Assembly: GCA_964566035.1 (NCBI GenBank)
Contig: CAZMHH010000007.1
Location: 4,803-68,802, forward strand
Direction of reading: 5' to 3'
Source of the DNA: an uncultured Thermodesulfobacteriota bacterium
Lineage (GTDB): Bacteria > Desulfobacterota > WTBG01 > CAIYCZ01 > CAIRTM01
Length of the DNA: 64,000 nt
Positions 24,253 to 64,000 of the stretch are shown piece after piece; the stretch's first letter is position 1, and each line of letters starts with the position of its first letter. The translations under genes were made by a program, and so were the position numbers. Under the pieces are notes generated by a model. That model saw nothing but the letters and a program-made list of their open reading frames with translations. It was not told where the DNA came from and ran no database searches.

Positions 24253-25716
24253 ATGAATATTAGAAAAGGACTCGATGGGGGTCAATATTGCCCATTAAAT
24301 GATGAGGATATAAAAAAAATACATGAAGCCACACTCAGAGTGTTTAGTGAAGTGGGTGTTGAGATAAACCATACTGAAGCCATTGAACTTTTTAAGGGTG
24401 CCGGTGCTGAAGTTGACGGTGATTCCGGAATTGTCCGAATCCCTTCTCACCTGGTTGAAAAATTAGTAGGTATGGCTCCTTCTGAAATTGTGCTGTGCGG
24501 ACGTGATGATGATCAAAGTCTTGACTGCAGGATAGGCGGAACACGTGTCTATATGGGGACCGGCGGAACAGCGCTTCAGGTGCAGGAGTCTGGAAGCAAT
24601 TCAGCCAGGCAGTCAAAGCTTGATGACATTGTTAACATGGCACGTCTTGTTGACAAACTTGAAAATATTCATTTCTATATGTTAAATGTCTATCCAAATG
24701 ACCTTGAAAACAGAAATGTTGATGTCAACCGTTTTGGAGCTGCTCTGAATAACACACAGAAACATATAATGGGAGGAGTCTATAGTGTTGAAGGAATACG
24801 CAATGTTGTCAGAATGGCTGAAATTATAGCAGGGTCTCCTGAAAAGCTGAGGGAACGCCCATTTATTTCAATGGTGGCATGTATTATAAGCCCTTTCAAG
24901 GTTGATGAGAGTTATGGAGAGCTGGCCATAGAGGTAGCCAGGCAGGGCATCCCGCTGGTGGTTCCTGCTGAGCCGTTGTGCGGAGCTACTGCCCCGATTA
25001 CACTTGCCGGAAATCTGTTGGTGCAGAATGTTGATACTCTTACAGGGGTTATGCTCAGCCAGTTGGTCAACCCCGGCACACCTATTTTATACGGTTGTAT
25101 TTCATCAATTACAGATCTGAGAGACATGAAATATCTTGCAGGAGCTGTTGAAATGGGTCTTTTGAATGCTGCATCTTCACAGATGGCAAGATTTTACGGT
25201 ATCCCGATTTATGCCACAGCAGGCATGTCTGATTCCAAGGTAAATGATGCTCAGGTTGGTTATGAGTCTGCAATGACAAACCTTATGGTTGCTCTTGCCG
25301 GAGCAAATTTTATTCACGATGCAGCGGGTTTTTTAGAGTTCTGTAAAACTGCCTCATATGATAAGCTTGTGATAGACAATGAAATTATTGGTATGGTTAT
25401 GCGTGCTGTTGAAGGAATTAAGGTTAGTGATGAGACACTTGCCTTTGATGAGATTAAAAAGGCAGGACCGGGGGGTAATTTCATCTCCTCGCGATTAACA
25501 AGGAAACTCATGCGTTCAGAACAATATAAACCCTGTTTCAGCGACAGGGAGAACAGAGATGTTTGGATGGAAGGCGGGTCAAAGGATGCTGCAACCAGGG
25601 CAACTGAGCATGTCGGCAGGGTTTTGGGTAAGGCTCGAGAAGCTGTTTTGCCCGCAGAGATCAGAAAATCTATTTTAGCTGAAATACAGGGGATTTGTCC
25701 CGAGATAATGCAATAA
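24253..25716 (+). CDS. MttB-superfamily (trimethylamine methyltransferase family) corrinoid-dependent methyltransferase, non-pyrrolysine type (MtgB-like)
   Basis: Full-length, 487 aa, with no internal stop codon, so no in-frame UAG. MttB-family TIM-barrel motifs are spread through the protein. Confidence 0.8.
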   Translation: MNIRKGLDGGQYCPLNDEDIKKIHEATLRVFSEVGVEINHTEAIELFKGAGAEVDGDSGIVRIPSHLVEKLVGMAPSEIVLCGRDDDQSLDCRIGGTRVYMGTGGTALQVQESGSNSARQSKLDDIVNMARLVDKLENIHFYMLNVYPNDLENRNVDVNRFGAALNNTQKHIMGGVYSVEGIRNVVRMAEIIAGSPEKLRERPFISMVACIISPFKVDESYGELAIEVARQGIPLVVPAEPLCGATAPITLAGNLLVQNVDTLTGVMLSQLVNPGTPILYGCISSITDLRDMKYLAGAVEMGLLNAASSQMARFYGIPIYATAGMSDSKVNDAQVGYESAMTNLMVALAGANFIHDAAGFLEFCKTASYDKLVIDNEIIGMVMRAVEGIKVSDETLAFDEIKKAGPGGNFISSRLTRKLMRSEQYKPCFSDRENRDVWMEGGSKDAATRATEHVGRVLGKAREAVLPAEIRKSILAEIQGICPEIMQ

Positions 25717-25743: not shown

Positions 25744-26535
25744 ATGATTATGATAGGTGAGAAGATAAATGCAACAATTAAGCGTGTTAAAAGCATTGTT
25801 GAGAATAGAGATAATGACGGGCTTGTTCAGCTTGCCAAAGCTCAGTCAGAGGCAGGAGCTGATATAATTGATGTAAATGTTGGAACAGGAACAGGAACTC
25901 AAGCAGATGAAATTGATGCAATACAGTGGGCAGTTGAATTGATTCAGCAGCATGTGGATAAACCGCTTTGTATTGACAGTGCCGACAAGGCTGTTCTTGA
26001 AGCTGGCTTGAAAAAAATAGACGGAAGACAGAGCATGATCAATTCCGTAAAGGCAGAAGAAAACAATATGGATGATATTATTCCTTTGGCAAAAGAGTTC
26101 AATTCCATGCTGGTAGCTCTTCCAATGGATGAAAAAGGTATTCCTGCTACTACTGCTGAAAGGGTTGATGTTTGCAGACAACTAATAAACCACTGTAAAA
26201 AATACGGGTTTTCTGTTGATAAACTATTCTTTGATCCGCTGGTGCTGCCGATATCATCTGATATTACTCAAGGGGCTATCACCCTGGACACACTTGCTGC
26301 TATCAAAAAAACATTTCCAGAGTCTAAAACAGTTATGGGGCTCTCAAATGTTTCCTATGGGCTTCCGGAGAGAAAGAAGCTCAACGCCGGTTTTATGTAT
26401 ATGGCAATTTATGCAGGTCTGGATGCTGTTATTGCAAATCCTATGGACGATGAGATTCAAATGGCTATAAAAGTGGCAGAAGCTTTAACCGGTAAAGATC
26501 CCCGTTGCAGGAGATATACAAGGGCTTTGAGATAA
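25744..26535 (+). CDS. pterin-binding methyltransferase (methylcorrinoid:tetrahydrofolate methyltransferase, MtgA/MtrH/AcsE-like)
   Basis: 'IMIGEKINATI' pterin-binding-domain start motif and DHPS-like TIM barrel. Positioned between the two mttB paralogs. Confidence 0.7.
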   Translation: MIMIGEKINATIKRVKSIVENRDNDGLVQLAKAQSEAGADIIDVNVGTGTGTQADEIDAIQWAVELIQQHVDKPLCIDSADKAVLEAGLKKIDGRQSMINSVKAEENNMDDIIPLAKEFNSMLVALPMDEKGIPATTAERVDVCRQLINHCKKYGFSVDKLFFDPLVLPISSDITQGAITLDTLAAIKKTFPESKTVMGLSNVSYGLPERKKLNAGFMYMAIYAGLDAVIANPMDDEIQMAIKVAEALTGKDPRCRRYTRALR

Positions 26536-26724: not shown

Positions 26725-28266
26725 ATGATTGATAATGAAGAATTTAGAAAGGGTATAGTTGTAAAGCCCTACAATAGACTTACCGAGCAGCAGGTTGGGC
26801 TTCTTGACAGAACCTCTCTTGATATACTGAAGGATCCTGGAATATGGTGTTATAATAAAAGAGCTGCAGATCTTTTTCATGAAAACGGAGCAGTGGTAAG
26901 GGAAGATTCTGATCAAAAGGGACATTTGTGGAGGATAAGCATTCCATCAGAACTTGTAAAAAAATCAGTTAAAAAAGCTCCTTCACGGTTTGTACTTGGA
27001 GCGCGCAATCCTGCAAACAGACTTTTGCTGGATGCCCAGGTACCAAGAGTATATTTTGGCTCAGGGTCTGAAACAAATGTCTGGATTGAGACCGAACTGG
27101 AAGACTTTGTAAGTCGCAGAGAACCGGGTATTAAGGTAAGGCTTCCGCGCTACAGGCAACTGCGAGGCAGCGCAGCTTTGCTGTGCAGGGCTGCAAAAAT
27201 ATGTGACAAGCTTGATAATCTTGATTTTTTTATAAGACCTGTAAATATTCAGGATGAAGGAATAACAGAAGATAATCATGATGTGAACAAGTTTTTTGCA
27301 AGTTTGAACAATATAACCAAACATGTTCAGGCAGGGTTGACAAAACTTGAAAAACTTGACGATGTTGTCCGTATGGCTGAGCTTATAGCAGGTGGAGCGG
27401 ACAATCTCAGAAAAAATCCTTTGATATCCTTTATTGCATGTGTGTTTAAAAGCCCCCTGCAAATGGTTGAAGATACAACCGATAAGGTTTTTGCAATAGT
27501 AGAGGCGGGTCTTCCGCTTGTGATATCATCATCACCGCAGGGGGGTTCCACAGCACCCATTCAGGAGACAGGAATGGTTGCCCAGATAAATGCAGAGATA
27601 CTTGCCGGTATAACTTTCACTCAGCTTATAAAACCCGGAGCACCTGTATTATATGGCAGTGTTCCAGTGCGTGCCCGCATGGATGACCTGCACGATTTAT
27701 ATGGCTGCCCTGAATTTAATCAGTATAATCATGACTGTGTTCAGTTGGCACGTCATTATCAGGTGCCGTGTTATTCCACAGCAGGAGTGGCTGATGCAAA
27801 AGTTCCCGGTATGCAGGCTTCATTTGAAAAGCTTCTTACTCATCTATATATGACAATGACCGGAGCCCAATATATTCATTATGCATTTGGGCTTTTGAAC
27901 AGGACTAATTCATTTTGTCCTGTTCAGGCTGTTATAGACAATGAACATATAGATAAGATTAAACAGAGTCTTAGAAATCCGGATGTCAGTGAACAGACCT
28001 ACGAAGAAACACTTAAGATGGTTCGCAAGGTTATGAATTCTCCCAATCGTCTTTATGCGCGTCATGCCCGCAAAGCAATTCATTCAGGACTTGTATCAGA
28101 GCCATATAAGTTTTCTGGCAGCGGCGCCGAGGACAAGGTTATTGAATATGCACTTAAGGAACTGTCCACCATAGAAGCAGAACCGGCAAGCCATATTCCT
28201 CATGAGATTCAGGACAGGATATTTGCTCAGATTTCCGGTCTTCTGCCGATACTGAAGAGCTGTTAA
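26725..28266 (+). CDS. second MttB-superfamily corrinoid-dependent methyltransferase (non-pyrrolysine)
   Basis: 513 aa, no internal stop. Collinear with the first paralog in the conserved blocks but highly diverged from it. Confidence 0.8.
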   Translation: MIDNEEFRKGIVVKPYNRLTEQQVGLLDRTSLDILKDPGIWCYNKRAADLFHENGAVVREDSDQKGHLWRISIPSELVKKSVKKAPSRFVLGARNPANRLLLDAQVPRVYFGSGSETNVWIETELEDFVSRREPGIKVRLPRYRQLRGSAALLCRAAKICDKLDNLDFFIRPVNIQDEGITEDNHDVNKFFASLNNITKHVQAGLTKLEKLDDVVRMAELIAGGADNLRKNPLISFIACVFKSPLQMVEDTTDKVFAIVEAGLPLVISSSPQGGSTAPIQETGMVAQINAEILAGITFTQLIKPGAPVLYGSVPVRARMDDLHDLYGCPEFNQYNHDCVQLARHYQVPCYSTAGVADAKVPGMQASFEKLLTHLYMTMTGAQYIHYAFGLLNRTNSFCPVQAVIDNEHIDKIKQSLRNPDVSEQTYEETLKMVRKVMNSPNRLYARHARKAIHSGLVSEPYKFSGSGAEDKVIEYALKELSTIEAEPASHIPHEIQDRIFAQISGLLPILKSC

Positions 28267-53868: not shown

Positions 53869-54456
53869 ATGCAACGAATTGATCACAAAATAATATTTGA
53901 TATCGTGGTGCCGGGTGCTTCGGTGCTGGATCTGGGATGCGGAGACGGAGAATTGCTCTACTCTCTTACAAAAGATAAAAATGTAAAAGCCCAGGGTATT
54001 GAGATAGACAGCAGGGCTGTTTTAAAGTGTTCAGAAAAAGGAATCGGTGTATATCACAGCAATATTGATGAAGGTCTTTCTGATTATACAGACAGCCGTT
54101 TTGACTATGTCATACTGAATCAGTCCATGCAGCAGGTGATAAAGCCTGAGTATGTGCTGAGCGAGGCGCTCAGGGTCGGGGTCAGGGTAATAGTGGGGTT
54201 TCCAAATTTTGCTTTTTATAGGGCAAGATTTCAGTTGGGTATTATGGGCAGAACGCCTGTCACGCCATCTCTTCCGTTTCACTGGTATGATACCCCGAAC
54301 CTTCATTTTCTGACCATTGCCGATTTTGTCTGGTACTGTAAGGAAAAGAATATTAGAATTGAAAAGGCTTTCGCAACAGGCAAAAAAAGGATAATTAAAA
54401 TTCTGCCCAATCTATTCGGGCGAAGCGCAATATTTATGATTAGAAGGAAGTTATGA
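53869..54456 (+). CDS. metW: methionine biosynthesis protein MetW
   Basis: 'VLDLGCGDGELL' SAM-MTase-like motif and overall MetW collinearity. Normal partner of metX. Confidence 0.8.
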   Translation: MQRIDHKIIFDIVVPGASVLDLGCGDGELLYSLTKDKNVKAQGIEIDSRAVLKCSEKGIGVYHSNIDEGLSDYTDSRFDYVILNQSMQQVIKPEYVLSEALRVGVRVIVGFPNFAFYRARFQLGIMGRTPVTPSLPFHWYDTPNLHFLTIADFVWYCKEKNIRIEKAFATGKKRIIKILPNLFGRSAIFMIRRKL

Positions 54457-55520
54457 CACAAAAGGTACTGGCTGCAATGAGCGGAGGGGTTGACTCCTCT
54501 GTCAGCGCACTTCTTCTAAAAGAGAAAGGGTTTAATGTCGAGGGGGTTACCATGTGCTTTGGTCTGAAAGACCAAAACCTGGATGGTAAAAAATGCTGTG
54601 ATGCCTCTTCAATTACAGATGCACAAAAGTGCTGCAAGGTTCTTGGTATAAGACATTTTGTGCTTGATTTTGCAGATGAGCTTGAGAACCATGTCATCAG
54701 AAACTTTATCTCTGAATATGAAAGGGGCAGAACCCCCAACCCTTGTGTTGAGTGCAACAGAGCAATAAAATTCGGGGCTCTTCTGAAAAAAGCCTCTTCT
54801 TTGGGTTTTGATTATCTTGCAACAGGACATTATGCTCAGCTTGAACTCTACAATAACTCTTTAACCTTAAAAAAACATAAAGATGCAAAAAAGGATCAGG
54901 TATATTTTTTATATGCGGTAGATAAAGACTGTTTCAGAAAAACTCTCTTCCCCCTTGCCGGATATACCAAGACGCAGGTCAGGCAGCTTGCAAAAGAGGC
55001 AAATCTGCCGGTTCAGAAAAAACCGGAAAGTCAGGATATCTGTTTTATAAAGGGCAGAGATTACGGGCAGTTTCTATCCTCACGCATTGGAGGCAGAATC
55101 AAACCGGGAGAGATTATTGACCTGAAAGGAAAGGTGCTTGGAAGACACAACGGTGTCTGTTTTTATACAATTGGCCAGAGGTACGGGCTTGGAATCAGTT
55201 CACCGCACCCTCTTTATGTTATACGTATTGATGACCAAAATAACAGACTTATTGTAGGCGGCAGAAAGCATTTAAAGTCCGGCGGATTAAAGGCTGACAG
55301 TATTAATATATTTGTTGACAAACTTCCTGAAAGCGTTTATGCAAAGATAAGATATGCCCACAGACCGCAGCCTTGCAGGGCTTTTGTTTCTGATGATATG
55401 TTGAATGTATGTTTTGATGAACCCCAGGAGGCGGTAACTCCGGGACAGTCTGTTGTGTTGTATGATGGTGATTATCTGCTTGGCGGTGGGGTTATAAAGG
55501 AGGTTTTGCCTTATGAGTAA
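54453..55520 (+). CDS. mnmA: tRNA 2-thiouridine(34) synthase
   Basis: PP-loop 'AAMSGGVDSSV', catalytic Cys region and C-terminal barrel typical of MnmA. Confidence 0.9.
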   Translation: MTQKVLAAMSGGVDSSVSALLLKEKGFNVEGVTMCFGLKDQNLDGKKCCDASSITDAQKCCKVLGIRHFVLDFADELENHVIRNFISEYERGRTPNPCVECNRAIKFGALLKKASSLGFDYLATGHYAQLELYNNSLTLKKHKDAKKDQVYFLYAVDKDCFRKTLFPLAGYTKTQVRQLAKEANLPVQKKPESQDICFIKGRDYGQFLSSRIGGRIKPGEIIDLKGKVLGRHNGVCFYTIGQRYGLGISSPHPLYVIRIDDQNNRLIVGGRKHLKSGGLKADSINIFVDKLPESVYAKIRYAHRPQPCRAFVSDDMLNVCFDEPQEAVTPGQSVVLYDGDYLLGGGVIKEVLPYE

Positions 55521-56442
55521 TAAAATGTATAAAGAGATTGCAGCTTTCATGAAAATGCCGCTTTTAGAGCTTGTTCAAAAGGCGGATACCGTTCGTCGTG
55601 ACAGGGGTTTTGAGAAGATGGATATCTGCACAATCTTCAACGCAAAATCGGGAAAATGCACCGAGGACTGCAAATTCTGCGCTCAGTCTTCCTACCACAA
55701 AACAGATATTTCACGCTATCCTTTGAAAAGTGTGGAAGAGATATTTAAAGCAGCTTTTGAAGCATATCAAAACGGCGCTCAGAGTTTCGGTATTGTCTGC
55801 AGCGGCAACAAACCGACGGAGAAAGAGTTCGGCGTGATTTGTGATGCAACAGAAAAAATCAGCCGAGAGATCGGAATTAAGGTCTGTGCCTCACTTGGTG
55901 CAATATCACGGGAAGAACTTAAACAGTTAAAGCAGTCAGGACTTTCAAAATATCATCACAACATTGAAACCTCCCCAAGGTTTTATCCGGAGATAGTCAC
56001 CACCCACAGCTTTGATGAAAGACTGCGCACAATCAATGCAGCTAGTAAAGCAGGGCTTGATGTGTGCTGCGGTGTTTTAATCGGAATGGGTGAGACAATG
56101 GATGACAGGATTGAGATGGCTCTCATCCTGAAAGAACTGCCTGTTGTTTCGGTTCCTGTAAACATCCTTGTCCCGATAAAGGGCACTCCGCTTGAGAATA
56201 AAGAGGCGCCTTCCTGTGATGAGATCATCAGAACAATTGCCATTTTCAGGATTCTGATTCAGGATAAAAGCATAAAGATTGCAGCAGGAAGAGAGACCGT
56301 ACTGAAGGACTTTCAGTCGCTGGGGTTTATGGCGGGAGCAACAGGAATGCTGATCGGAGGATATCTCACGGTAAAGGGAAGGCAAATTGAAGAAGACAGA
56401 AGGCTGATAAAGGAGATAGAGAGTGTATGGGATAGCTCGTAG
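55513..56442 (+). CDS. bioB: biotin synthase-like radical SAM enzyme
   Basis: 'KSGKCTEDCKFCAQS' CxxxCxxC radical-SAM motif in a BioB-like context. No other bio genes are nearby. Confidence 0.65.
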   Translation: MSNKMYKEIAAFMKMPLLELVQKADTVRRDRGFEKMDICTIFNAKSGKCTEDCKFCAQSSYHKTDISRYPLKSVEEIFKAAFEAYQNGAQSFGIVCSGNKPTEKEFGVICDATEKISREIGIKVCASLGAISREELKQLKQSGLSKYHHNIETSPRFYPEIVTTHSFDERLRTINAASKAGLDVCCGVLIGMGETMDDRIEMALILKELPVVSVPVNILVPIKGTPLENKEAPSCDEIIRTIAIFRILIQDKSIKIAAGRETVLKDFQSLGFMAGATGMLIGGYLTVKGRQIEEDRRLIKEIESVWDSS

Positions 56443-56503
56443 TAAAACATAAAAGCCGTTGAGCTGTTAAGCTGATAAGCAAAAGCGATAATGACAACGA
56501 TAG

Positions 56504-56631
56504 CGATTACGAGCACGACCACGGGTGGCAAAAACAGTTTCAAGATTCAAGCTGCAAGTGGAAAGCAAAAGGATATTCTGACTTCTGTTTTTCTGTCAGG
56601 GAGCGCCGCACCCACAGTGCGGCAAGTTATT
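56504..56631. repeat. ~125 bp intergenic repeat, copy B
   Basis: 'cgattacgagcacga..acgggtggcaaaaacagtttcaagattcaagctgcaagtggaaagcaaaaggatattctgacttctg...gagcgccgcaccc.cagtgcggcaagttatt' matches copy A with only a few substitutions and short indels. Confidence 0.7.
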
Positions 56632-56671
56632 AACACATATACACTCATACACATATACACATTTTGAAAAC

Positions 56672-57490
56672 ATGGGATCAATTGAAAAGAAATACAGTAA
56701 ATTAAAAAGCATACTGTCTGAAATGGAAAGTGTGCTTGTGGCATATTCCGGCGGAACGGACAGCACCTTTTTACTGAAAACAGCCCAGGATGTTCTTGGT
56801 GACAGGGTGATTGCTGCTATAGCAGAATCTCCGACTTTTCCTGCTTCTGAAAAAGACCGTGCCCTTTCAGAAGCAAAAAAGATGAATGTAGAGGTAATTG
56901 TTTTTAAAAGCACCGAGATAAGGAACAAACGGTACCTCCAAAACAAGCCCGACAGATGTTACTGGTGCAAAAAAGAGCTCTTTACAGGGTTTAAAAAGGA
57001 AGCTCATAAAAAAGGCATATCCTGTATTGTTGAAGGCAGCAACTTTGACGACCGGAAAGATTACAGACCTGGCTTTAAAGCTGTTACTGAGCTTGGTATA
57101 AAAAGCCCTCTTTATGAAGCAAAACTTATAAAGGCTGATATCCGTGAGTTGTCGAGAAAAGCAGGGCTTGATACATGGAACCGTCCGGCATCTGCCTGTC
57201 TTGCATCACGCATACCTTACGGTAAGCCGATTAATGAAAAAACACTTAAACAGATTGACCGTGCTGAACAGTATCTGAAAAAACTTGGGATAAATCAGGT
57301 CAGGGTGCGTCATCATGGCGATACAGCAAGGATTGAGACCTTAAATGAGTTTTTCACATTGCTGTTCAGAGATGATGTAAGAAAAAAAACAATCAGAGCT
57401 TTCAAAAGAATTGGCTATTTATACATCACCGTTGATCTGGAAGGTTATTCTATGGGCAGTCTTAATAAAGTATTGTCAGTTAAGGTGTGA
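56672..57490 (+). CDS. PP-loop ATP pyrophosphatase of the LarE/TIGR00268 family (putative sacrificial sulfur transferase)
   Basis: PP-loop 'VAYSGGTDSTFLL' and 'RPASACLASRIPYG', which matches the LarE reactive-Cys motif. Confidence 0.65.
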   Translation: MGSIEKKYSKLKSILSEMESVLVAYSGGTDSTFLLKTAQDVLGDRVIAAIAESPTFPASEKDRALSEAKKMNVEVIVFKSTEIRNKRYLQNKPDRCYWCKKELFTGFKKEAHKKGISCIVEGSNFDDRKDYRPGFKAVTELGIKSPLYEAKLIKADIRELSRKAGLDTWNRPASACLASRIPYGKPINEKTLKQIDRAEQYLKKLGINQVRVRHHGDTARIETLNEFFTLLFRDDVRKKTIRAFKRIGYLYITVDLEGYSMGSLNKVLSVKV

Positions 57491-57495
57491 ACTGT

Positions 57496-58713
57496 ATGAG
57501 ACCAATTTATCTTGACTATGCAGCCACAACACCAGTACTGCCGGAGGTGCTGGAAGTTGCAAACAGATACTGTCTTGAACAATTCGGTAACCCCTCCTCC
57601 CTGCATGAATTTGGTTTTGAAGCAAAAAAGGCGATAGAACATACACGAAGCACAGTTGCGCGGTTTATTGGAGCATCAGCTTCTGAATCAATAATTTTTA
57701 CCTCATCTGCTACAGAGTCAAACAACCTTGCCATACAGGGACTTGTCTTAAACATTGCAGAAAAACCCGTTCATATCATCACCTCTGAAACAGAGCATAG
57801 TTCAGTCTATAATGTATGCACATTTTTACAGGGTTTGGGGCATGATGTTACTTTTCTGCCGGTTGATTCATACGGCAGGGTAAGTCCAAAAGCACTTAAT
57901 AAAAACATAAAGCCTGACACAGCGCTAATCTCCATTCATTATGCAAACAGCGAGACAGGTGTAATCCAGGACATTGAAACTATCGGTGAAATTGCTCTCA
58001 AAAGCAGTATGGTTTTTCATACAGATGCGGTTCAGCCAATCGGCAGGATACAAATAGATGTTTTAAAGAGCAGCATCTCTATGCTGTCATGCTCTGCGCA
58101 CAAACTCTACAGTATCAAAGGAGCAGGGTTTCTGCTTGCTGATATGGCTGATATCAGACTCAGACTTGTTCAAAGAAATATCAGGCTTGAAGCAGATGAT
58201 TCTCTGTTAAAACCCCTGATGTATGGCGGAAGTCAGGAAGAAGGTCTGAGACCCTCAACCGAAAATGTTCCGGCAATTACAGCAATGAGTAAAGCCATTG
58301 AGATTGCAGCGGCAGATATGACGGCTGAAAGCCAGAGACAGAAAGAGCTGCGGGAGTATTTTATCGGTTCTGTCTTAGAGAGGATCCCGGGAACAGACCT
58401 TAACGGTTCAAGGCAGAAGCGTCTTCCAAACAACTGTAATTTATGTTTCAGGGGGGTGAATGCTTATGAGCTGATGCTTCTGCTTGACAGAAGGGGGATT
58501 GCCTGCTCAATCGGTTCAGCCTGCACATCCCATTCAGAGAAACCGTCAAGAGTGTTAACAGCAACGGTACTGACCAGTGAGGAAGCAGCAGGTTCTCTCA
58601 GGTTTATACTTGGAAGGTACACTACACTACAAGATCTGGACTATGCAGTAGAGGAAATTAGAAGATGTGTTGGTAAGCTGAACAAGGTTAGCAGCGTAGC
58701 TCGTAGCTGGTAG
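57496..58713 (+). CDS. cysteine desulfurase (NifS/IscS family)
   Basis: 'IYLDYAATTP' N-terminus, PLP-lysine region 'SCSAHKLYSIKG', catalytic Cys near the C-terminus. Confidence 0.85.
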   Translation: MRPIYLDYAATTPVLPEVLEVANRYCLEQFGNPSSLHEFGFEAKKAIEHTRSTVARFIGASASESIIFTSSATESNNLAIQGLVLNIAEKPVHIITSETEHSSVYNVCTFLQGLGHDVTFLPVDSYGRVSPKALNKNIKPDTALISIHYANSETGVIQDIETIGEIALKSSMVFHTDAVQPIGRIQIDVLKSSISMLSCSAHKLYSIKGAGFLLADMADIRLRLVQRNIRLEADDSLLKPLMYGGSQEEGLRPSTENVPAITAMSKAIEIAAADMTAESQRQKELREYFIGSVLERIPGTDLNGSRQKRLPNNCNLCFRGVNAYELMLLLDRRGIACSIGSACTSHSEKPSRVLTATVLTSEEAAGSLRFILGRYTTLQDLDYAVEEIRRCVGKLNKVSSVARSW

Positions 58714-58859
58714 CAATAAGCAGCTATCAGGTATCAGGTATCGGCTGTCAGCAAAGAGCAGGTATCGGGTATTAGGTGTCAGTTATCAGCAAAACCTTTT
58801 CGTGGTCGTAATCGTAATCGCTTTTGCTTTATAGCACATTGAAAAAAGGATGGAGTATT

Positions 58860-59693
58860 ATGAAGAAATATTCATCATTGACGGAAGAGCAGATAGAGAG
58901 ATATTCAAGACAGATTACCTTAAAAGAGATCGGCGGAAAGGGGATGAAAAAACTGCTCTCCTCAAAGGTTGTGATTGTAGGGGCAGGGGGACTTGGCTGC
59001 CCTGCTGCTCAGATACTTGGCGCAGCAGGAGTTGGCAGGATAAGAATTATTGACGGTGACAGAATCGAAACATCCAATCTCCCCAGACAGTTTCTCCACC
59101 ACTATGATGATATCGGAAAATTTAAAGCAGAAAGTATTAAGGCAAAAATTAATGCCATGAATCCTGATGTGGAGGCAGAGGCAGCAGTTGAGTTTGTCAC
59201 TGTTTCAAATGCGGAAAGGCTTCTTAAAGGGTTTGACTATGTGATTGAAGCAAGCGATAATCAGGCGACCAAGTTTCTGATAAACGATGCCTGCATTCAT
59301 TTTGATATTCCGTTTTCTGTTGCCGGAGTTGTTCAGTTCTATGGACAGGTGCTGTCGGTTAGACCAGGAGAGACCAGGTGCCTGAGATGTCTTTTCAAGG
59401 AGCCTTTTCATGAAGGTGAAGGGATGAACTGTGCAGGAGCAGGTGTCATAGGAACAGTCCCGGCATTTGCTGCCACAATGCAGGCAAATGAGGCAATAAA
59501 GTCAATTCTCGAATTGAAAAGAGGATTTCTTGACCGGTTGTTTGTTTTCTCTCTTCTTGAAAATTCCTATGATTTTCTTGATATTAAAAATTTGCCACTT
59601 TGTCCAGCCTGTTTAAAAAAAAATGAGCCTTTTTATTGCAACTATGACTATGATGCATATATGAATAAAAGATGTGATGTTAAGGGGATTTAG
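58860..59693 (+). CDS. thiF: ThiF/MoeB-family E1-like sulfur-carrier adenylyltransferase
   Basis: 'RYSRQI' start and 'VVIVGAGGLGCPAAQILGAAGVG' nucleotide-binding loop. Two CxxC pairs near the C-terminus. Confidence 0.8.
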   Translation: MKKYSSLTEEQIERYSRQITLKEIGGKGMKKLLSSKVVIVGAGGLGCPAAQILGAAGVGRIRIIDGDRIETSNLPRQFLHHYDDIGKFKAESIKAKINAMNPDVEAEAAVEFVTVSNAERLLKGFDYVIEASDNQATKFLINDACIHFDIPFSVAGVVQFYGQVLSVRPGETRCLRCLFKEPFHEGEGMNCAGAGVIGTVPAFAATMQANEAIKSILELKRGFLDRLFVFSLLENSYDFLDIKNLPLCPACLKKNEPFYCNYDYDAYMNKRCDVKGI

Positions 59694-59714
59694 GTATTTA
59701 TGAAAAGTTCAAAA

Positions 59715-59962
59715 TATGATAATATTAATAATACTGATCTTAATTTCATTGACTTGAAAGGAAAAAATGTCCCCTGAATTTTGTTTATACAAAACTTGCA
59801 TTAGAAGATTTAAAGCAGGGACAGATACTAAAGGTAGCCCTTGATTACCCTCCGGCATTTACAAATGTTCCCAGATCGGTTAAACTTCAGGAACTTGGAG
59901 AGGTGCTGGATGAATCTGAGTCTGAGACCGGTGAAAAAATTATCTGGATAAAGAAAATATAA
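59715..59962 (+). pseudogene. TusA-family sulfurtransferase gene interrupted by a +1/-1 frameshift in an A6 homopolymer (59762-59767)
   Basis: Frame 0 reads 'MINI NNTDLNFIDLKGKNVP*'. The next frame continues '(KK)CPLNFVYTKLALEDLKQGQILKVALDYPPAFTNVPRSVKLQELGEVLDESESETGEKIIWIKKI*'. Inserting one A gives an intact 82-aa TusA with the 'DLKGKKCPLNF' active-site motif. Confidence 0.6.
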
Positions 59963-59976
59963 AGGAATTATATAAC

Positions 59977-60888
59977 ATGCAAAGAAATGACATTATTAAA
60001 GAGATAGAACATTTGAAAAAGAAACACAATGCTGTGATTCTGGCTCATAATTATCAGAGGGACGAGGTTCAGGAACTCGCTGATTTCAGTGGAGATTCAT
60101 TTGCTTTGAGTGTACAGGCAAGCAAAACTAAGGCAGATATGATAGTATTCTGCGGAGTTCATTTTATGGCTGAAACAGCAGCAATTCTGTCTCCGCAGAA
60201 AACAGTTCTTATACCTGACCCTGGAGCAGGATGTCCAATGGCTGATATGATAACAGCGGCGCAACTTAAAGATTTAAAAGCAGAACATCCGGGTGCGAAA
60301 GTTATTGCCTATGTAAACACCTCAGCAGAGGTAAAGGCTGAAACAGATATCTGCTGTACCTCTTCAAATGCTCTTAAGGTGGTGCAGAGTGTGGAGAAGG
60401 AAAGTGAGATTATTTTTGTCCCTGATAAATATCTCGGAACATATATAAGCTCCATAACAGACAGAGAGTTTATACTGTGGAACGGTTTCTGTCCCACTCA
60501 TATTAAAATAACAGAGGATGATATCCTTCTGCTGAAAGAAAAACTGCCGGGCGCAAAAGTTCTTGTCCATCCCGAATGTACACCTGAGGTTACAGGGGTT
60601 GCCGATGAGGTCCTCTCAACAGAGGGTATCTGCCGTTATGCCCGGAGCTCAAACGCTCAAAAATTTATAATAGGAACAGAGATCGGAATTATGTACAGGC
60701 TGAGGAAAGAAAATCCGGGTAAGGAGTTTTTCCCTGCTTCTGAAAAGGCAGTATGCCCGAACATGAAGAAAACAACCCTTGAAAAAGTTCTGTCCTGTTT
60801 AGAGGGTTTGCAAAACCCGGTAAGGGTGCCTGAGGCGATTTCCAGCAAAGCAAGAGAAGCTCTGACGAGGATGATAAGCATTTCCTGA
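59977..60888 (+). CDS. nadA: quinolinate synthase
   Basis: 'AVILAHNYQRDEVQELADFSGDS' and the three-domain NadA architecture with conserved Cys ligands. Confidence 0.9.
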   Translation: MQRNDIIKEIEHLKKKHNAVILAHNYQRDEVQELADFSGDSFALSVQASKTKADMIVFCGVHFMAETAAILSPQKTVLIPDPGAGCPMADMITAAQLKDLKAEHPGAKVIAYVNTSAEVKAETDICCTSSNALKVVQSVEKESEIIFVPDKYLGTYISSITDREFILWNGFCPTHIKITEDDILLLKEKLPGAKVLVHPECTPEVTGVADEVLSTEGICRYARSSNAQKFIIGTEIGIMYRLRKENPGKEFFPASEKAVCPNMKKTTLEKVLSCLEGLQNPVRVPEAISSKAREALTRMISIS

Positions 60889-60900
60889 ACCTCAAAACTT

Positions 60901-61461
60901 ATGAAATATTTTGCAATAACCCCTGATGATTGTTCCATTGACTATTTAGCATCCAAAATTCCTCATCTCAAAGAGAAAGGGGTTTGGGGACTTTATCTGC
61001 GCTCCGGTGACCTTAAAAACCGTGTTGCAGGCGCTGCTAAGATTACAGCAGAAGCAGGTATTATACCTATTGTTTATAATGCTGATTACAGTTGCTGCAG
61101 AGCAGAGCTTGAGAGGTTTAAGGCGGGAGTTCATTTCAAAAGCAGTGAATACAGCAGAAGTCTAAGAGATAGATTCACAGGTTCCTGTATATGCACAGTA
61201 TCTGCCCACAGCACTCAAGAGGCAGAAAGGCTTTTAACAGAAAAGGTGGATTATGTCTTTCTGTCTCCTGTATTTAAACCGTTTTCAAAGAATCAGGCAA
61301 GCCCGAGACTTCTGCCTCTTAATGACATAAAAATGCTGGTAGCTGTTTATTCAGAGAAAGTGGTGCTGCTTGGCGGAATGACCATTCAGAGGATAGGGAT
61401 GATAAGGAAAGATATCAAGGATGATTTTTCAGTTGCAGGTATAACCATGTTTTTTGAATGA
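60901..61461 (+). CDS. thiamine-phosphate synthase-like protein (ThiE/TenI family, divergent)
   Basis: 'VDYVFLSPVFKPFSK' against the ThiE 'DY.g.gP.F.T.TK' motif. C-terminal 'VVLLGGM' against 'VAIGGI'. Confidence 0.55.
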   Translation: MKYFAITPDDCSIDYLASKIPHLKEKGVWGLYLRSGDLKNRVAGAAKITAEAGIIPIVYNADYSCCRAELERFKAGVHFKSSEYSRSLRDRFTGSCICTVSAHSTQEAERLLTEKVDYVFLSPVFKPFSKNQASPRLLPLNDIKMLVAVYSEKVVLLGGMTIQRIGMIRKDIKDDFSVAGITMFFE

Positions 61462-61473
61462 TTGTGAGGAAGT

Positions 61474-61677
61474 ATGTTTTTAAAAGTAAATGGAGAAAAA
61501 AAGGAAGTAGGCAGCAGCGTGAAAAACCTTGCTCAGCTTATTGCAGAGCTGGGGATAAAGAATCGTTTTGTTGCTGTTGAGCTTAACGGTGAAATAGTCC
61601 AGTCTGATAAATTTGAAACAACACCTGTGGCAGAAAATGACAGGGTGGAGGTTGTAACTTTTGTAGGAGGAGGATGA
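61474..61677 (+). CDS. thiS: sulfur carrier protein ThiS
   Basis: 67 aa ubiquitin-like protein ending in GG, immediately upstream of thiG. Confidence 0.75.
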
Positions 61678-61678
61678 T

Positions 61679-62455
61679 ATGAAAAAACTAACCATTGCAG
61701 GCGTTGAATTTAAGTCAAGACTTTTTATAGGAACAGGCAAATACCCTTCTCCTTCAGTTCTTGCCAAGTCTCTTGAGGCATCAGGCTCAGAGCTTGTTAC
61801 AGTTGCCTTGAGACGAGTGGATCTGCAAGACAGGGAAGACCCTACACTTTCTGCAATAGATTTCAACATGTATCATGTTGTGCCAAACACATCAGGCGCA
61901 AAGGACGCTGATGAGGCTGTAAGGCTCGCCATGCTTGCAAGGGCTGCTTCAGGGTTAAACTGGATAAAACTTGAAGTAACCCCGGATCCGGTTTACCTTA
62001 TGCCTGATCCCTATGAGACATTAAAGGCAGCAGAAAGGCTTGTCAGGGAGGGTTTTGTTGTTCTTCCCTATATTCACGCAGACCCTGTTCTTGCCAAGCG
62101 TCTTGAGGATGCAGGATGTGCCGCTGTGATGCCGCTTGGTTCTCCTATCGGCTCTGCGCGGGGTATTAAGACAGTTGATTTTATCGATATTATTATTCAA
62201 CAGGCAAAAGTTCCTGTTGTTGTTGATGCGGGCATAGGACTTCCTTCCCATGCAGCCCAGGCAATAGAGCTTGGGGCTGATGCAGTTCTTGTCAATACTG
62301 CCATTGCTGTTGCAGGCGACCCGGTAAAAATGGCATATTCCTTCAAGCTGGCTGTGGATGCAGCAGTAGCGGCAGTAGAGGCTGAACCTGTTGACATGAA
62401 GATAACCGCATCTGCATCAAGTCCATTAACCGGTTTTCTTGACAAGGATGTATAA
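61679..62455 (+). CDS. thiG: thiazole synthase
   Basis: '[12 protein letters not shown]' and a TIM-barrel lysine region. Canonical ThiG length. Confidence 0.9.
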
Positions 62456-63600
62456 TGAGTTTTGCAGATGAACTTAAAAGTATTGACCTTACCAAAATCA
62501 GGGCATTAACAGAAAGCTTTACTGATTATGATGTAAAAAAGGTTCTGTCTAAAAAGAGCTATACGGTGAAAGATCTCCCTGCTCTGATCTCACCTGCTGC
62601 CTCAGGATATATCGAAGAGATGGCACAGCATTCAAAAAAAAACACGCTGCTTCGGTTCGGGCGGATTGTAAAACTCTATGCTCCGCTTTATATCTCAAAT
62701 GAATGTATTAACAGATGTGCTTATTGCGGTTTTAATGCTGACAACAAACTGGAGAGAAAAACACTTGAAAAACAGGAGGTGCTTAAGGAAGCTGAAATGC
62801 TGAGCCTGCAGGGGTTCAGGCATATACTTCTTGTATCAGGGGAAAGCCCAAAGCATGTCCCGCTTGAATATCTTGAGGAAATATCACTGGAACTTCAGAA
62901 GATGTTTTCAGCTGTGTCCATTGAGGTCTATCCGCTGGATGAACCCGCATACAGAAGACTTCTTAAAAGCGGGGTTACAGGCATTGCAATCTATCAGGAA
63001 ACATACAGCAAAGAGATGTATAAAAAATTTCATAGCGGGCCAAAAGCTGATTTTGACTTCCGTTTAATAACACCTGAAAATGCTGGAAAAGCCGGGTTCA
63101 GGGAGATTGGCATCGGAGCGCTTATGGGGCTTAATGATTTCAGAACAGAGGTTGTCTGTATAGGGCTGCATGCTGAATATTTAATGAAAAATTTCTGGAA
63201 AGCTCAAATTGCCATATCCTTTCCAAGAATCAGGGCATCGGCTGGAAATTTTGTTCCGGATTCAGTTGTATCAGATTCAAATCTTGCGCAGGCTATGTTT
63301 GCCCTGCGCATGGTATTGCCGGATGCTGATCTGGTGTTGTCAACAAGAGAAAATCCCCGTTTCAGGGATGCAATGGCTGGAATTGCCATAACACGGATGA
63401 GCGCTGGGTCTAAAACAAATCCTGGAGGCTACTGTTTTGATGAAGGATCGCTGAAACAGTTTGAGATTGCAGACGAAAGATCCCCTGAAGAGATAGCCCG
63501 CATGCTTTGTAATAAAGGGCTTGAGCCGGTCTGGAAAGATTTTGATACAGCGTTTATATCTTGTGCCGGGTCGGTAAACGGCGGACAGAATTCTGCTTAA
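62455..63600 (+). CDS. thiH: 2-iminoacetate synthase (tyrosine lyase), radical SAM
   Basis: '[10 protein letters not shown]' radical-SAM motif and ThiH-like N-terminus. Overlaps the thiG stop. Confidence 0.85.
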
Positions 63601-63636
63601 AAAAAGATTATGGGTCCAAAGACTGAGTTAATAAAA

Positions 63637-63672
63637 ACAGGCTCTCCATCTAAAAAGGAGAGCCTGTTTCAT
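63637..63672 (+). terminator. intrinsic terminator candidate after thiH
   Basis: Perfect 11-bp stem 'acaggctctcc' / 'ggagagcctgt' with a 9-nt loop, followed by 'ttcat'. The T-tract is weak. Confidence 0.5.
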
Positions 63673-64000
63673 ATCCCATTAGAAAATAAAAAAATATTAT
63701 TGTCAAAATGTATCATAATTTCTGTGCTGAAAAGTATTCATCCGGTATGCAGTTCATGTAATAACTGAACCCCATAATTGTATCCGGTGGGGCAGGGGCA
63801 AGACTTCATACCTAAGCGAAAGGGATCGTCATTAAAAACAATTATGTTCATCTGACAGTGACGGAAGGGACTCTGAGGAGTCAGGAATATTTTTTGTAGC
63901 TTAGATATTTGAAAACCCTGTTTTCTGACTCCTGAACACCATTTTTTCTCTTTTATTCCTCAGTCTCTTCTTCATCAGCACAGTTCTCTGCATCAGAGAG

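Follow-up and report, generated by a model that had tools for sequence, protein, structure and literature searches.

Members of the TusA/SirA/YeeD/YedF family are single-domain proteins of about 80 amino acids, with the element order beta-alpha-beta-alpha-beta-beta and a Cys-Pro pair at the N-terminus of helix 1 (canonical motif CPxP), and their genes stand beside that of a cysteine desulfurase. The partners of E. coli-type TusA are TusBCD/TusE. A-rich tracts inside genes are known from programmed -1 frameshifting and slippage sites, among them the dnaX heptamer A_AAA_AAG, the A9/T9 run of Thermus dnaX, IS3/IS911 and the poly(A) tracts of endosymbionts. In E. coli, a slippery heptamer that lacks a stimulator raises frameshifting 2- to 10-fold over a background of 0.055%, with about 0.3% reached by the best A_AAG motifs (PMC4066793), and the runs for which efficient slippage of bacterial RNA polymerase has been described consist of 9 A or T (PMC5009743). 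The third class for comparison is formed by homopolymer indels, either as pseudogenes or as assembly errors. The locus presented here, a tusA-like gene split at a run of six A, lies in the window (the whole 64-kb stretch of DNA that was analysed) and touches all of these systems.

Anatomy and family of the split tusA-like locus

The locus reads ATG AAA AGT TCA AAA TAT GAT AAT ATT AAT AAT ACT GAT CTT… from position 59700 onward, and its 5' part continues as …AAT TTC ATT GAC TTG AAA GGA AAA AAT GTC CCC TGA. Frame 0 translates to MKSSKYDNINNTDLNFIDLKGKNVP and ends at this TGA, i.e., the reading frame as given is not intact (Table 1). Frame -1 is open from 59753 to a TAA at 59960-59962, with the translation LERKKCPLNFVYTKLALEDLKQGQILKVALDYPPAFTNVPRSVKLQELGEVLDESESETGEKIIWIKKI (alternative excerpt …KKCPLNFVYTKLALEDLKQGQILKVALDYPPAFTNVPRSVKLQELGEVLDESESETGEKIIWIKKI). 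The two frames join within the A6 run, where the insertion of one A produces an 87-aa protein starting at ATG 59700; this start codon and the N-terminal MKSS are also kept in the closest relative found (L001, see below). The preliminary description of this DNA had already recognised a TusA-family gene that is split at the A6 run of 59762-59767 and that one additional A restores, including the active-site Cys of a 'CP' pair, and all of this is borne out here by the frames meeting in that very run, by a profile match across the junction and by Cys24-Pro25 just after it. Its N-terminal details have to be corrected: the gene starts at 59700 and not at 59715, the restored length is 87 and not 82 aa, and the proposed 'MINI' N-terminus does not exist, as ATG 59716 belongs to the third frame and gives the product MIILIILILISLT. 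In frame -1, no ATG, GTG or TTG occurs from the stop at 59750-59752 to a GTG at about 59903, and thus none ahead of the Cys codon, which rules out an internal restart for the Cys-containing part.

Table 1. Coordinates of the split tusA-like gene and of the surrounding gene cluster in the window
Feature	Position	Strand	Remarks
mnmA	54453-55520	+	tightly packed with the tusA cluster
bioB	55513-56442	+	tightly packed with the tusA cluster
larE	56672-57490	+	TIGR00268, 318.9 bits (cut-off 150)
NifS/IscS-type class-V cysteine desulfurase	57487-58713	+	profile matches
ThiF/MoeB/HesA-family E1-like adenylyltransferase	58860-59693	+	Pfam ThiF, 246.5 bits
SD-like AAGGGG of the tusA-like gene	59683-59688	+	
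tusA-like 5' part, frame 0	59700-59777	+	ATG through beta-strand 1 (…LNFIDLKGK)
A6 homopolymer, frameshift point	59762-59767	+	orthologous sites: A7 in L001, GGT AAA CAA TGT in L163/L164
tusA-like 3' part, frame -1	59768-59962	+	Cys24-Pro25 (TGT CCC), helix 1, remaining domain, TAA
Out-of-frame tail N-V-P and premature TGA	59775-59777 (TGA)	+	end of the tusA-like 5' part
nadA	59977-60888	+	own SD AAAGGAA at 59961-59967
thiE, thiS, thiG, thiH	after nadA	+	same tightly packed cluster; thiS at 61474-61677

Two further features of the 5' region were seen. Compared with L001 and L163, the window gene carries an 18-nt AT-rich in-frame insertion at 59721-59738, which corresponds to six extra residues (alignment columns INNTDL) in the unstructured N-terminus. 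The thiF stop codon TAG is followed by exactly 6 nt and then by the in-frame tusA ATG, and this arrangement is the same in the window (59691-59702), L001 (148-159) and L163 (902-913). Read-through of the TAG would fuse ThiF to TusA, but the spacing may simply be a conserved operon spacing.

The restored protein matched the Pfam TusA profile PF01206 with 59.6 bits (E 2.7e-16, cut-off 28.6) over residues 16-86, covering profile positions 2-70 of 70. Because the match crosses the junction, the juxtaposition of the two frames is not due to chance, and the locus is a TusA-family gene. Its scores against the NCBIfam equivalog models for TusA (NF001423, 16.0 bits, cut-off 78) and YedF (NF008242, 38.5 bits, cut-off 79) both fall far below the cut-offs, so that the protein is an orthologue of neither E. 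coli TusA nor YedF. The best sequence matches in the PDB were Thermotoga TM0983 (1jdq, E 6e-9) and Spirochaeta YeeD (8k1r, E 8e-7).

An AlphaFold2 model of the restored protein, built with 18 homologues, had a mean pLDDT of 84.2 and the order beta-alpha-beta-alpha-beta-beta, with strands at residues 14-18, 43-48, 67-74 and 80-86 and helices at residues 26-36 and 51-63. Foldseek comparison with the PDB returned YeeD/TsuB (8k1r_B, rmsd 1.1 over 73 columns), the E. coli TusA of the IscS-TusA complex (3lvj_C, TMt 0.85, rmsd 1.9) and the SirA-like protein 3hz7; the TMq of the fold matches was 0.71-0.79 (TMt and TMq are the target- and query-normalised TM-scores, respectively). Strand 1 (residues 14-18) is coded 5' of the shift and Cys24-Pro25 is coded 3' of it; the two pieces therefore belong to one domain, and neither would be functional alone. 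The Cys-Pro pair was unchanged in 18 of 18 homologues. In comparison, the second Pro of the canonical motif is replaced, giving CPLN in the window protein and CPMT or CPYT in most of its relatives, while L096 and L097 have CPLP. The motif of the subfamily is thus CP[MLY][TN]F as opposed to CPxP, and the window gene is a new member of the known TusA family, where it belongs to a subfamily linked to ThiF and marked by a non-canonical CPxN/T motif.

The iscS-thiF-tusA module

The cluster around the split gene (Table 1) contains the thiF, nadA, cysteine desulfurase and LarE-like genes named in the preliminary description, all confirmed by profile matches. For the E1-like product of 58860-59693, the scores against the NCBIfam MoeB and ThiF models were all under their equivalog cut-offs. 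Module synteny was analysed by local tblastn, with the window cluster proteins as queries and all retrieved loci as targets. Of about 160 relatives, the large majority have thiF and tusA as direct neighbours, and the loci with this pair range from Desulfobacterota-like MAGs to Asgard (Promethearchaeota) MAGs. The cysteine desulfurase, larE and mnmA genes are often found upstream of thiF-tusA in the relatives (L002-L162). The order iscS-thiF-tusA was present in L002, L083, L085, L087-L092 and L094, extended to mnmA-larE-iscS-thiF-tusA in L002, L085 and L094 and to bioB-iscS-thiF-tusA in L083 and L087-L092, and the window order thiF-tusA-nadA-thiE recurs in L163. The sulfur-relay context of tusA is, therefore, real and conserved, and more strongly so than had been claimed at first. 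The E1-like protein is the conserved upstream partner of the CP[MLY][TN]F TusA subfamily.

As for the function of the module, the cysteine desulfurase of the cluster is probably the source of sulfur. By analogy with the known E. coli TusA and from the gene neighbourhood, sulfur might flow from IscS to TusA and further to the E1 and its carrier, or to MnmA. The thiF-tusA pair also occurs without thiamine genes nearby, so that the substrate of the E1 may be ThiS, MoaD or a different carrier. The CP[MLY][TN]F TusA may act as the persulfide donor for ThiS/MoaD-type thiocarboxylation in organisms without a ThiI rhodanese domain.

Several other observations concern the same region. Searches for a TPP riboswitch or another RNA near the operon gave no match at the gathering threshold, nor at E <=1 over 56300-60100, and a search for terminators and promoters around the frameshift site yielded nothing informative. 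The intergenic region between the desulfurase and thiF (58713-58823) holds degenerate GGTATCAG-like octamer repeats (…cagctatcaggtatcaggtatcggctgtcagc…aggtatcgggtattaggtgtcagttatcagc) without an Rfam match. In the metagenome contigs L136 (180-856) and L160 (459-1237), the thiF tblastn match came in two segments, which suggests frameshifts there, either real or assembly-derived. Elsewhere in the window, the Rfam model PYLIS_3 (pyrrolysine insertion sequence of mttB) matched at 25225-25324 on the forward strand with 62.9 bits (gathering score 38). This match lies within an uninterrupted 487-aa MttB-family ORF (24253-25716; Pfam MTTB, 345 bits), next to a pterin-binding gene (25744-26535) and a second MttB homologue (26725-28266). 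Since the ORF is without an in-frame stop, it looks like a non-pyrrolysine MttB, and the RNA match may be plain nucleotide homology.

State of the site in relatives and age of the lesion

The closest relative found was protein P0001 on L001 (NCBI JAXDEL010480632.1), with 84-90% amino acid and about 88% nucleotide identity. At the site of the frameshift, it has A7 (GGA AAA AAA TGC; GAGAGGAAAAAAATGC) within an intact 85-aa gene directly after thiF. The next relatives, L163 and L164, are two Logan assemblies whose ThiF is 75% identical to that of the window; they carry an intact 84-aa tusA in the window order thiF-tusA-nadA-thiE and read GGT AAA CAA TGT at the site. The wider set came from two scans. 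In the scan of genome contigs, the peptide pattern spanned the frameshift site and was blind to shifted genes; here, D[LI]xGxx was in frame with CP in 80 of 80 loci. In the scan of metagenome contigs, the query alignment was trimmed to begin at the Cys and was, as such, unbiased against frameshifts; of its 80 loci, 79 were evaluable, and D[LI]xGxx was in frame with CP in all 79. No frameshifted tusA was found among the roughly 160 evaluable related loci (L002-L162), nearly all of which interrupt the A run with AAG, GTN, ATH or CAA codons. A long A run at the site occurs only in L001, where it is A7 and in frame.

As judged from these alignments, the frameshift is not conserved among relatives. 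The relatives carry an intact in-frame gene, which makes the intact tusA the ancestral state, and the simplest account of the window A6 is the loss of one base from an A7 tract coding for Gly-Lys-Lys, with A7 in the ancestor inferred from the relatives. A comparison of the orthologous locus had been proposed in the preliminary description; L001, L163/L164 and the approximately 160 further loci all have the gene intact.

The substitution pattern bears on the age of the lesion. The 64 codons past the frameshift site show 12 synonymous and 3 nonsynonymous changes between the window and L001, and 5 synonymous and 2 nonsynonymous changes fall on the window branch when L163 is used as the outgroup. 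With about 3/4 of changes expected to be nonsynonymous under neutrality, so few nonsynonymous changes have a binomial P of about 0.015, albeit with small counts. Moreover, the window tusA retains its start codon, SD and stop codon as well as every residue that is invariant in the family. It could be imagined that the locus is an old, decaying pseudogene, TusA having long been dispensable in the lineage and the frameshift being one of several lesions; the gene is indeed interrupted, and no second tusA copy was found in the 64-kb window. There is, however, one lesion only, synonymous changes greatly outnumber nonsynonymous ones even on the window's own branch, and the N-terminal indel is in frame. 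The absence of decay, the in-frame 18-nt insertion and the retained start, SD, stop and invariant residues together exclude an old pseudogene, and we give this explanation hardly any credence. The lesion is either very recent or absent from the organism altogether.

Origin of the lesion and comparison with known systems

The conclusion in which we have high confidence is that the window shows a very recent A7 to A6 contraction in a conserved tusA-like gene and not a conserved recoding device. As we read it, the locus is orthologous to a tusA-like sulfur-carrier gene that is conserved, normally intact and placed after the genes of a ThiF/MoeB-type E1 and a cysteine desulfurase. The ancestral A7 (GGA AAA AAA, Gly-Lys-Lys, just before the active-site Cys) would have shrunk by one base to A6; translation from ATG 59700 thus meets TGA 59775 once 25 residues have been made, and everything from Cys24 to the end of the domain is missing from the product. 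The intact protein would take persulfide from the desulfurase and hand it to a ThiF-dependent (ThiS/MoaD-type) or MnmA pathway.

The preliminary description had offered three explanations: an indel error, a recent pseudogenisation and a slippage-prone site that tunes TusA levels. The last of these has lost most of its support, and the other two both remain. If the A6 allele were maintained for recoding or as a contingency locus, TusA would be made at a low, tuned level, by RNA-polymerase slippage adding an A or by a -1 ribosomal frameshift on A_AAA_AAU (59762-59768), or else the tract would toggle between A6 and A7 and act as a phase-variable on/off switch of the gene within the population. 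The sequence has some of the expected appearance. A_AAA_AAT at 59762-59768 is formally an X_XXY_YYZ heptamer in frame 0 (codons GGA AAA AAT), a 0-frame stop lies two codons past it, and the product of a -1 shift would read GKNCP…, which retains the catalytic Cys. Furthermore, the RNA of 59769-59830 folds at -12.7 kcal/mol (z = -2.07), and low-level 'compensatory' frameshifting at homopolymer indels is known (review PMC5009743).

The evidence on the other side is heavier. None of the approximately 160 relatives is shifted, most of them interrupting the A run with AAG, GTN or CAA, and the heptamer is absent from all of them but L001, where the gene is in frame. A stimulator of -1 frameshifting was defined either as a structure that lies 5-9 nt past the heptamer or as an SD-like element some 10 nt before it; at 59762-59768, the predicted helix starts with zero spacer after the heptamer, and there is no upstream SD at the usual distance. 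The helix itself beats shuffled sequences only marginally (10 of 200 fold as well), an 89-nt fold does not stand out from shuffles at all (z = 0.06), and a similar helix in the in-frame L001 gene indicates that it probably reflects the coding sequence. Without a stimulator, even the best A_AAG-type heptamers of E. coli reach at most about 0.3% frameshifting (PMC4066793). The run of 6 A is also shorter than the homopolymer of about 9 or more A or T that was taken as the threshold for efficient transcriptional slippage (PMC5009743), and for a housekeeping sulfur carrier, there is no obvious reason for phase variation. We, therefore, consider a functional recoding or contingency role improbable. 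The same holds for a real A6 allele that is tolerated through a rare slippage trickle of full-length TusA or through A6/A7 toggling, which we regard as a long shot; if true, a homopolymer would set a housekeeping sulfur-relay protein to a very low or switchable level.

The remaining question is whether the contraction is carried by the organism or only by its assembly. Our preferred reading is a genuine replication-slippage deletion in the strain or population, i.e., a nascent pseudogene or a polymorphic null allele, to which we give roughly an even chance. The other, that the organism has A7 and an intact 87-aa TusA and that basecalling, consensus or polishing dropped one A at the homopolymer, is a distinct possibility but a tentative one. 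In its favor, what is missing is exactly one base, in a homopolymer that is A7 in the orthologue, the gene has no other lesion and is under purifying selection, the neighbouring operon genes are all intact, and the gene is intact in every relative examined as part of a tightly conserved module; a flawless conserved gene one homopolymer base short has the classic look of an indel error. Its loss in the window genome alone would also be surprising, as about 160 relatives have kept it intact.

The quality of the surrounding sequence argues against such an error. The 58 intact long ORFs of the window hold 167 homopolymers of at least 6, including 61 of at least 7, and none of the 167 breaks a frame, whereas several broken frames would be expected of an error-prone long-read assembly. 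No other gene split at a homopolymer was found among the 58 long ORFs, and no gene fragments were recognisable in window gaps of more than 250 nt. Overlapping or abutting same-strand ORF pairs were considered as further frameshifts and rejected, being separate full-length genes (XseB/IspA, AcrB/OEP, DXS/FtsJ-type, MetW). An independent contig of the same organism (L082, Logan, SRR15425353) was reached via ThiG and ThiS. It begins inside nadA at window position 60147, short of tusA, and is 100% identical to the window over 60147-63695 (3549 nt), across 8 homopolymers including A9 and three A7; the identical stretch begins 380 nt downstream of the frameshift site. The 71-kb source contig itself looks like a short-read MAG, and A6/A7 miscalls are rare in short-read assemblies. 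The identity with L082 and the unbroken homopolymers favour an accurate assembly.

Exact-product look-ups of NadA, ThiF (in two forms), IscS and LarE gave no independent sequence over 59762-59767, nor did an exact look-up of a spurious 49-aa antisense ORF that is present only with A6. When the N-terminal 71 aa of NadA were used as a protein query for an upstream contig fragment, no match exceeded 77% identity. Between real mutation and assembly error, genuine mutation is only slightly favoured.

The main importance of the locus is for annotation: rather than staying blank, it should be entered as a frameshifted tusA-family gene, and a read check of the site is needed before the organism is scored as lacking a TusA sulfur carrier. 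If the deletion is real, the strain would lack the TusA of an iscS-thiF-tusA module that is intact everywhere else, and would represent a natural knockout of a module with putative sulfur delivery to ThiS/MoaD-type carriers or MnmA.

Compared with the described programmed -1 and slippage sites, the window locus has an A-rich slippery heptamer and needs a shift in the same -1 direction, equal to adding one A. It differs in that the shift is not conserved and the run is only 6 long, that a spaced downstream stimulator and an upstream SD at the usual distance are absent, and that the 0-frame product is a useless 25-mer; moreover, its heptamer ends in U and not in G as in dnaX A_AAA_AAG. With homopolymer indel pseudogenes and assembly errors, it shares the single -1 in an A tract, the early stop and the otherwise perfect ORF, and nothing distinguishes the window case from them: the frameshift itself is an ordinary homopolymer indel event. 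With the TusA/SirA/YeeD/YedF family, it shares the size, the single domain with its order of elements, the position of the Cys-Pro pair and the cysteine desulfurase gene beside it. Neither the TusA membership nor the lesion would surprise a specialist. The more interesting by-product is the conserved iscS-thiF-tusA module. That a CP[MLY][TN]F TusA subfamily is fixed beside a ThiF/MoeB-type E1, in organisms as far apart as Desulfobacterota-like bacteria and Asgard archaea, is more likely to be true than slippage or toggling at the A6 run. Within the TusA family, the window protein thus differs by its CPLN in place of the canonical CPxP and by the frameshift in its gene, and from the E. coli-type TusA by a ThiF/MoeB-type E1 as the partner instead of TusBCD/TusE.
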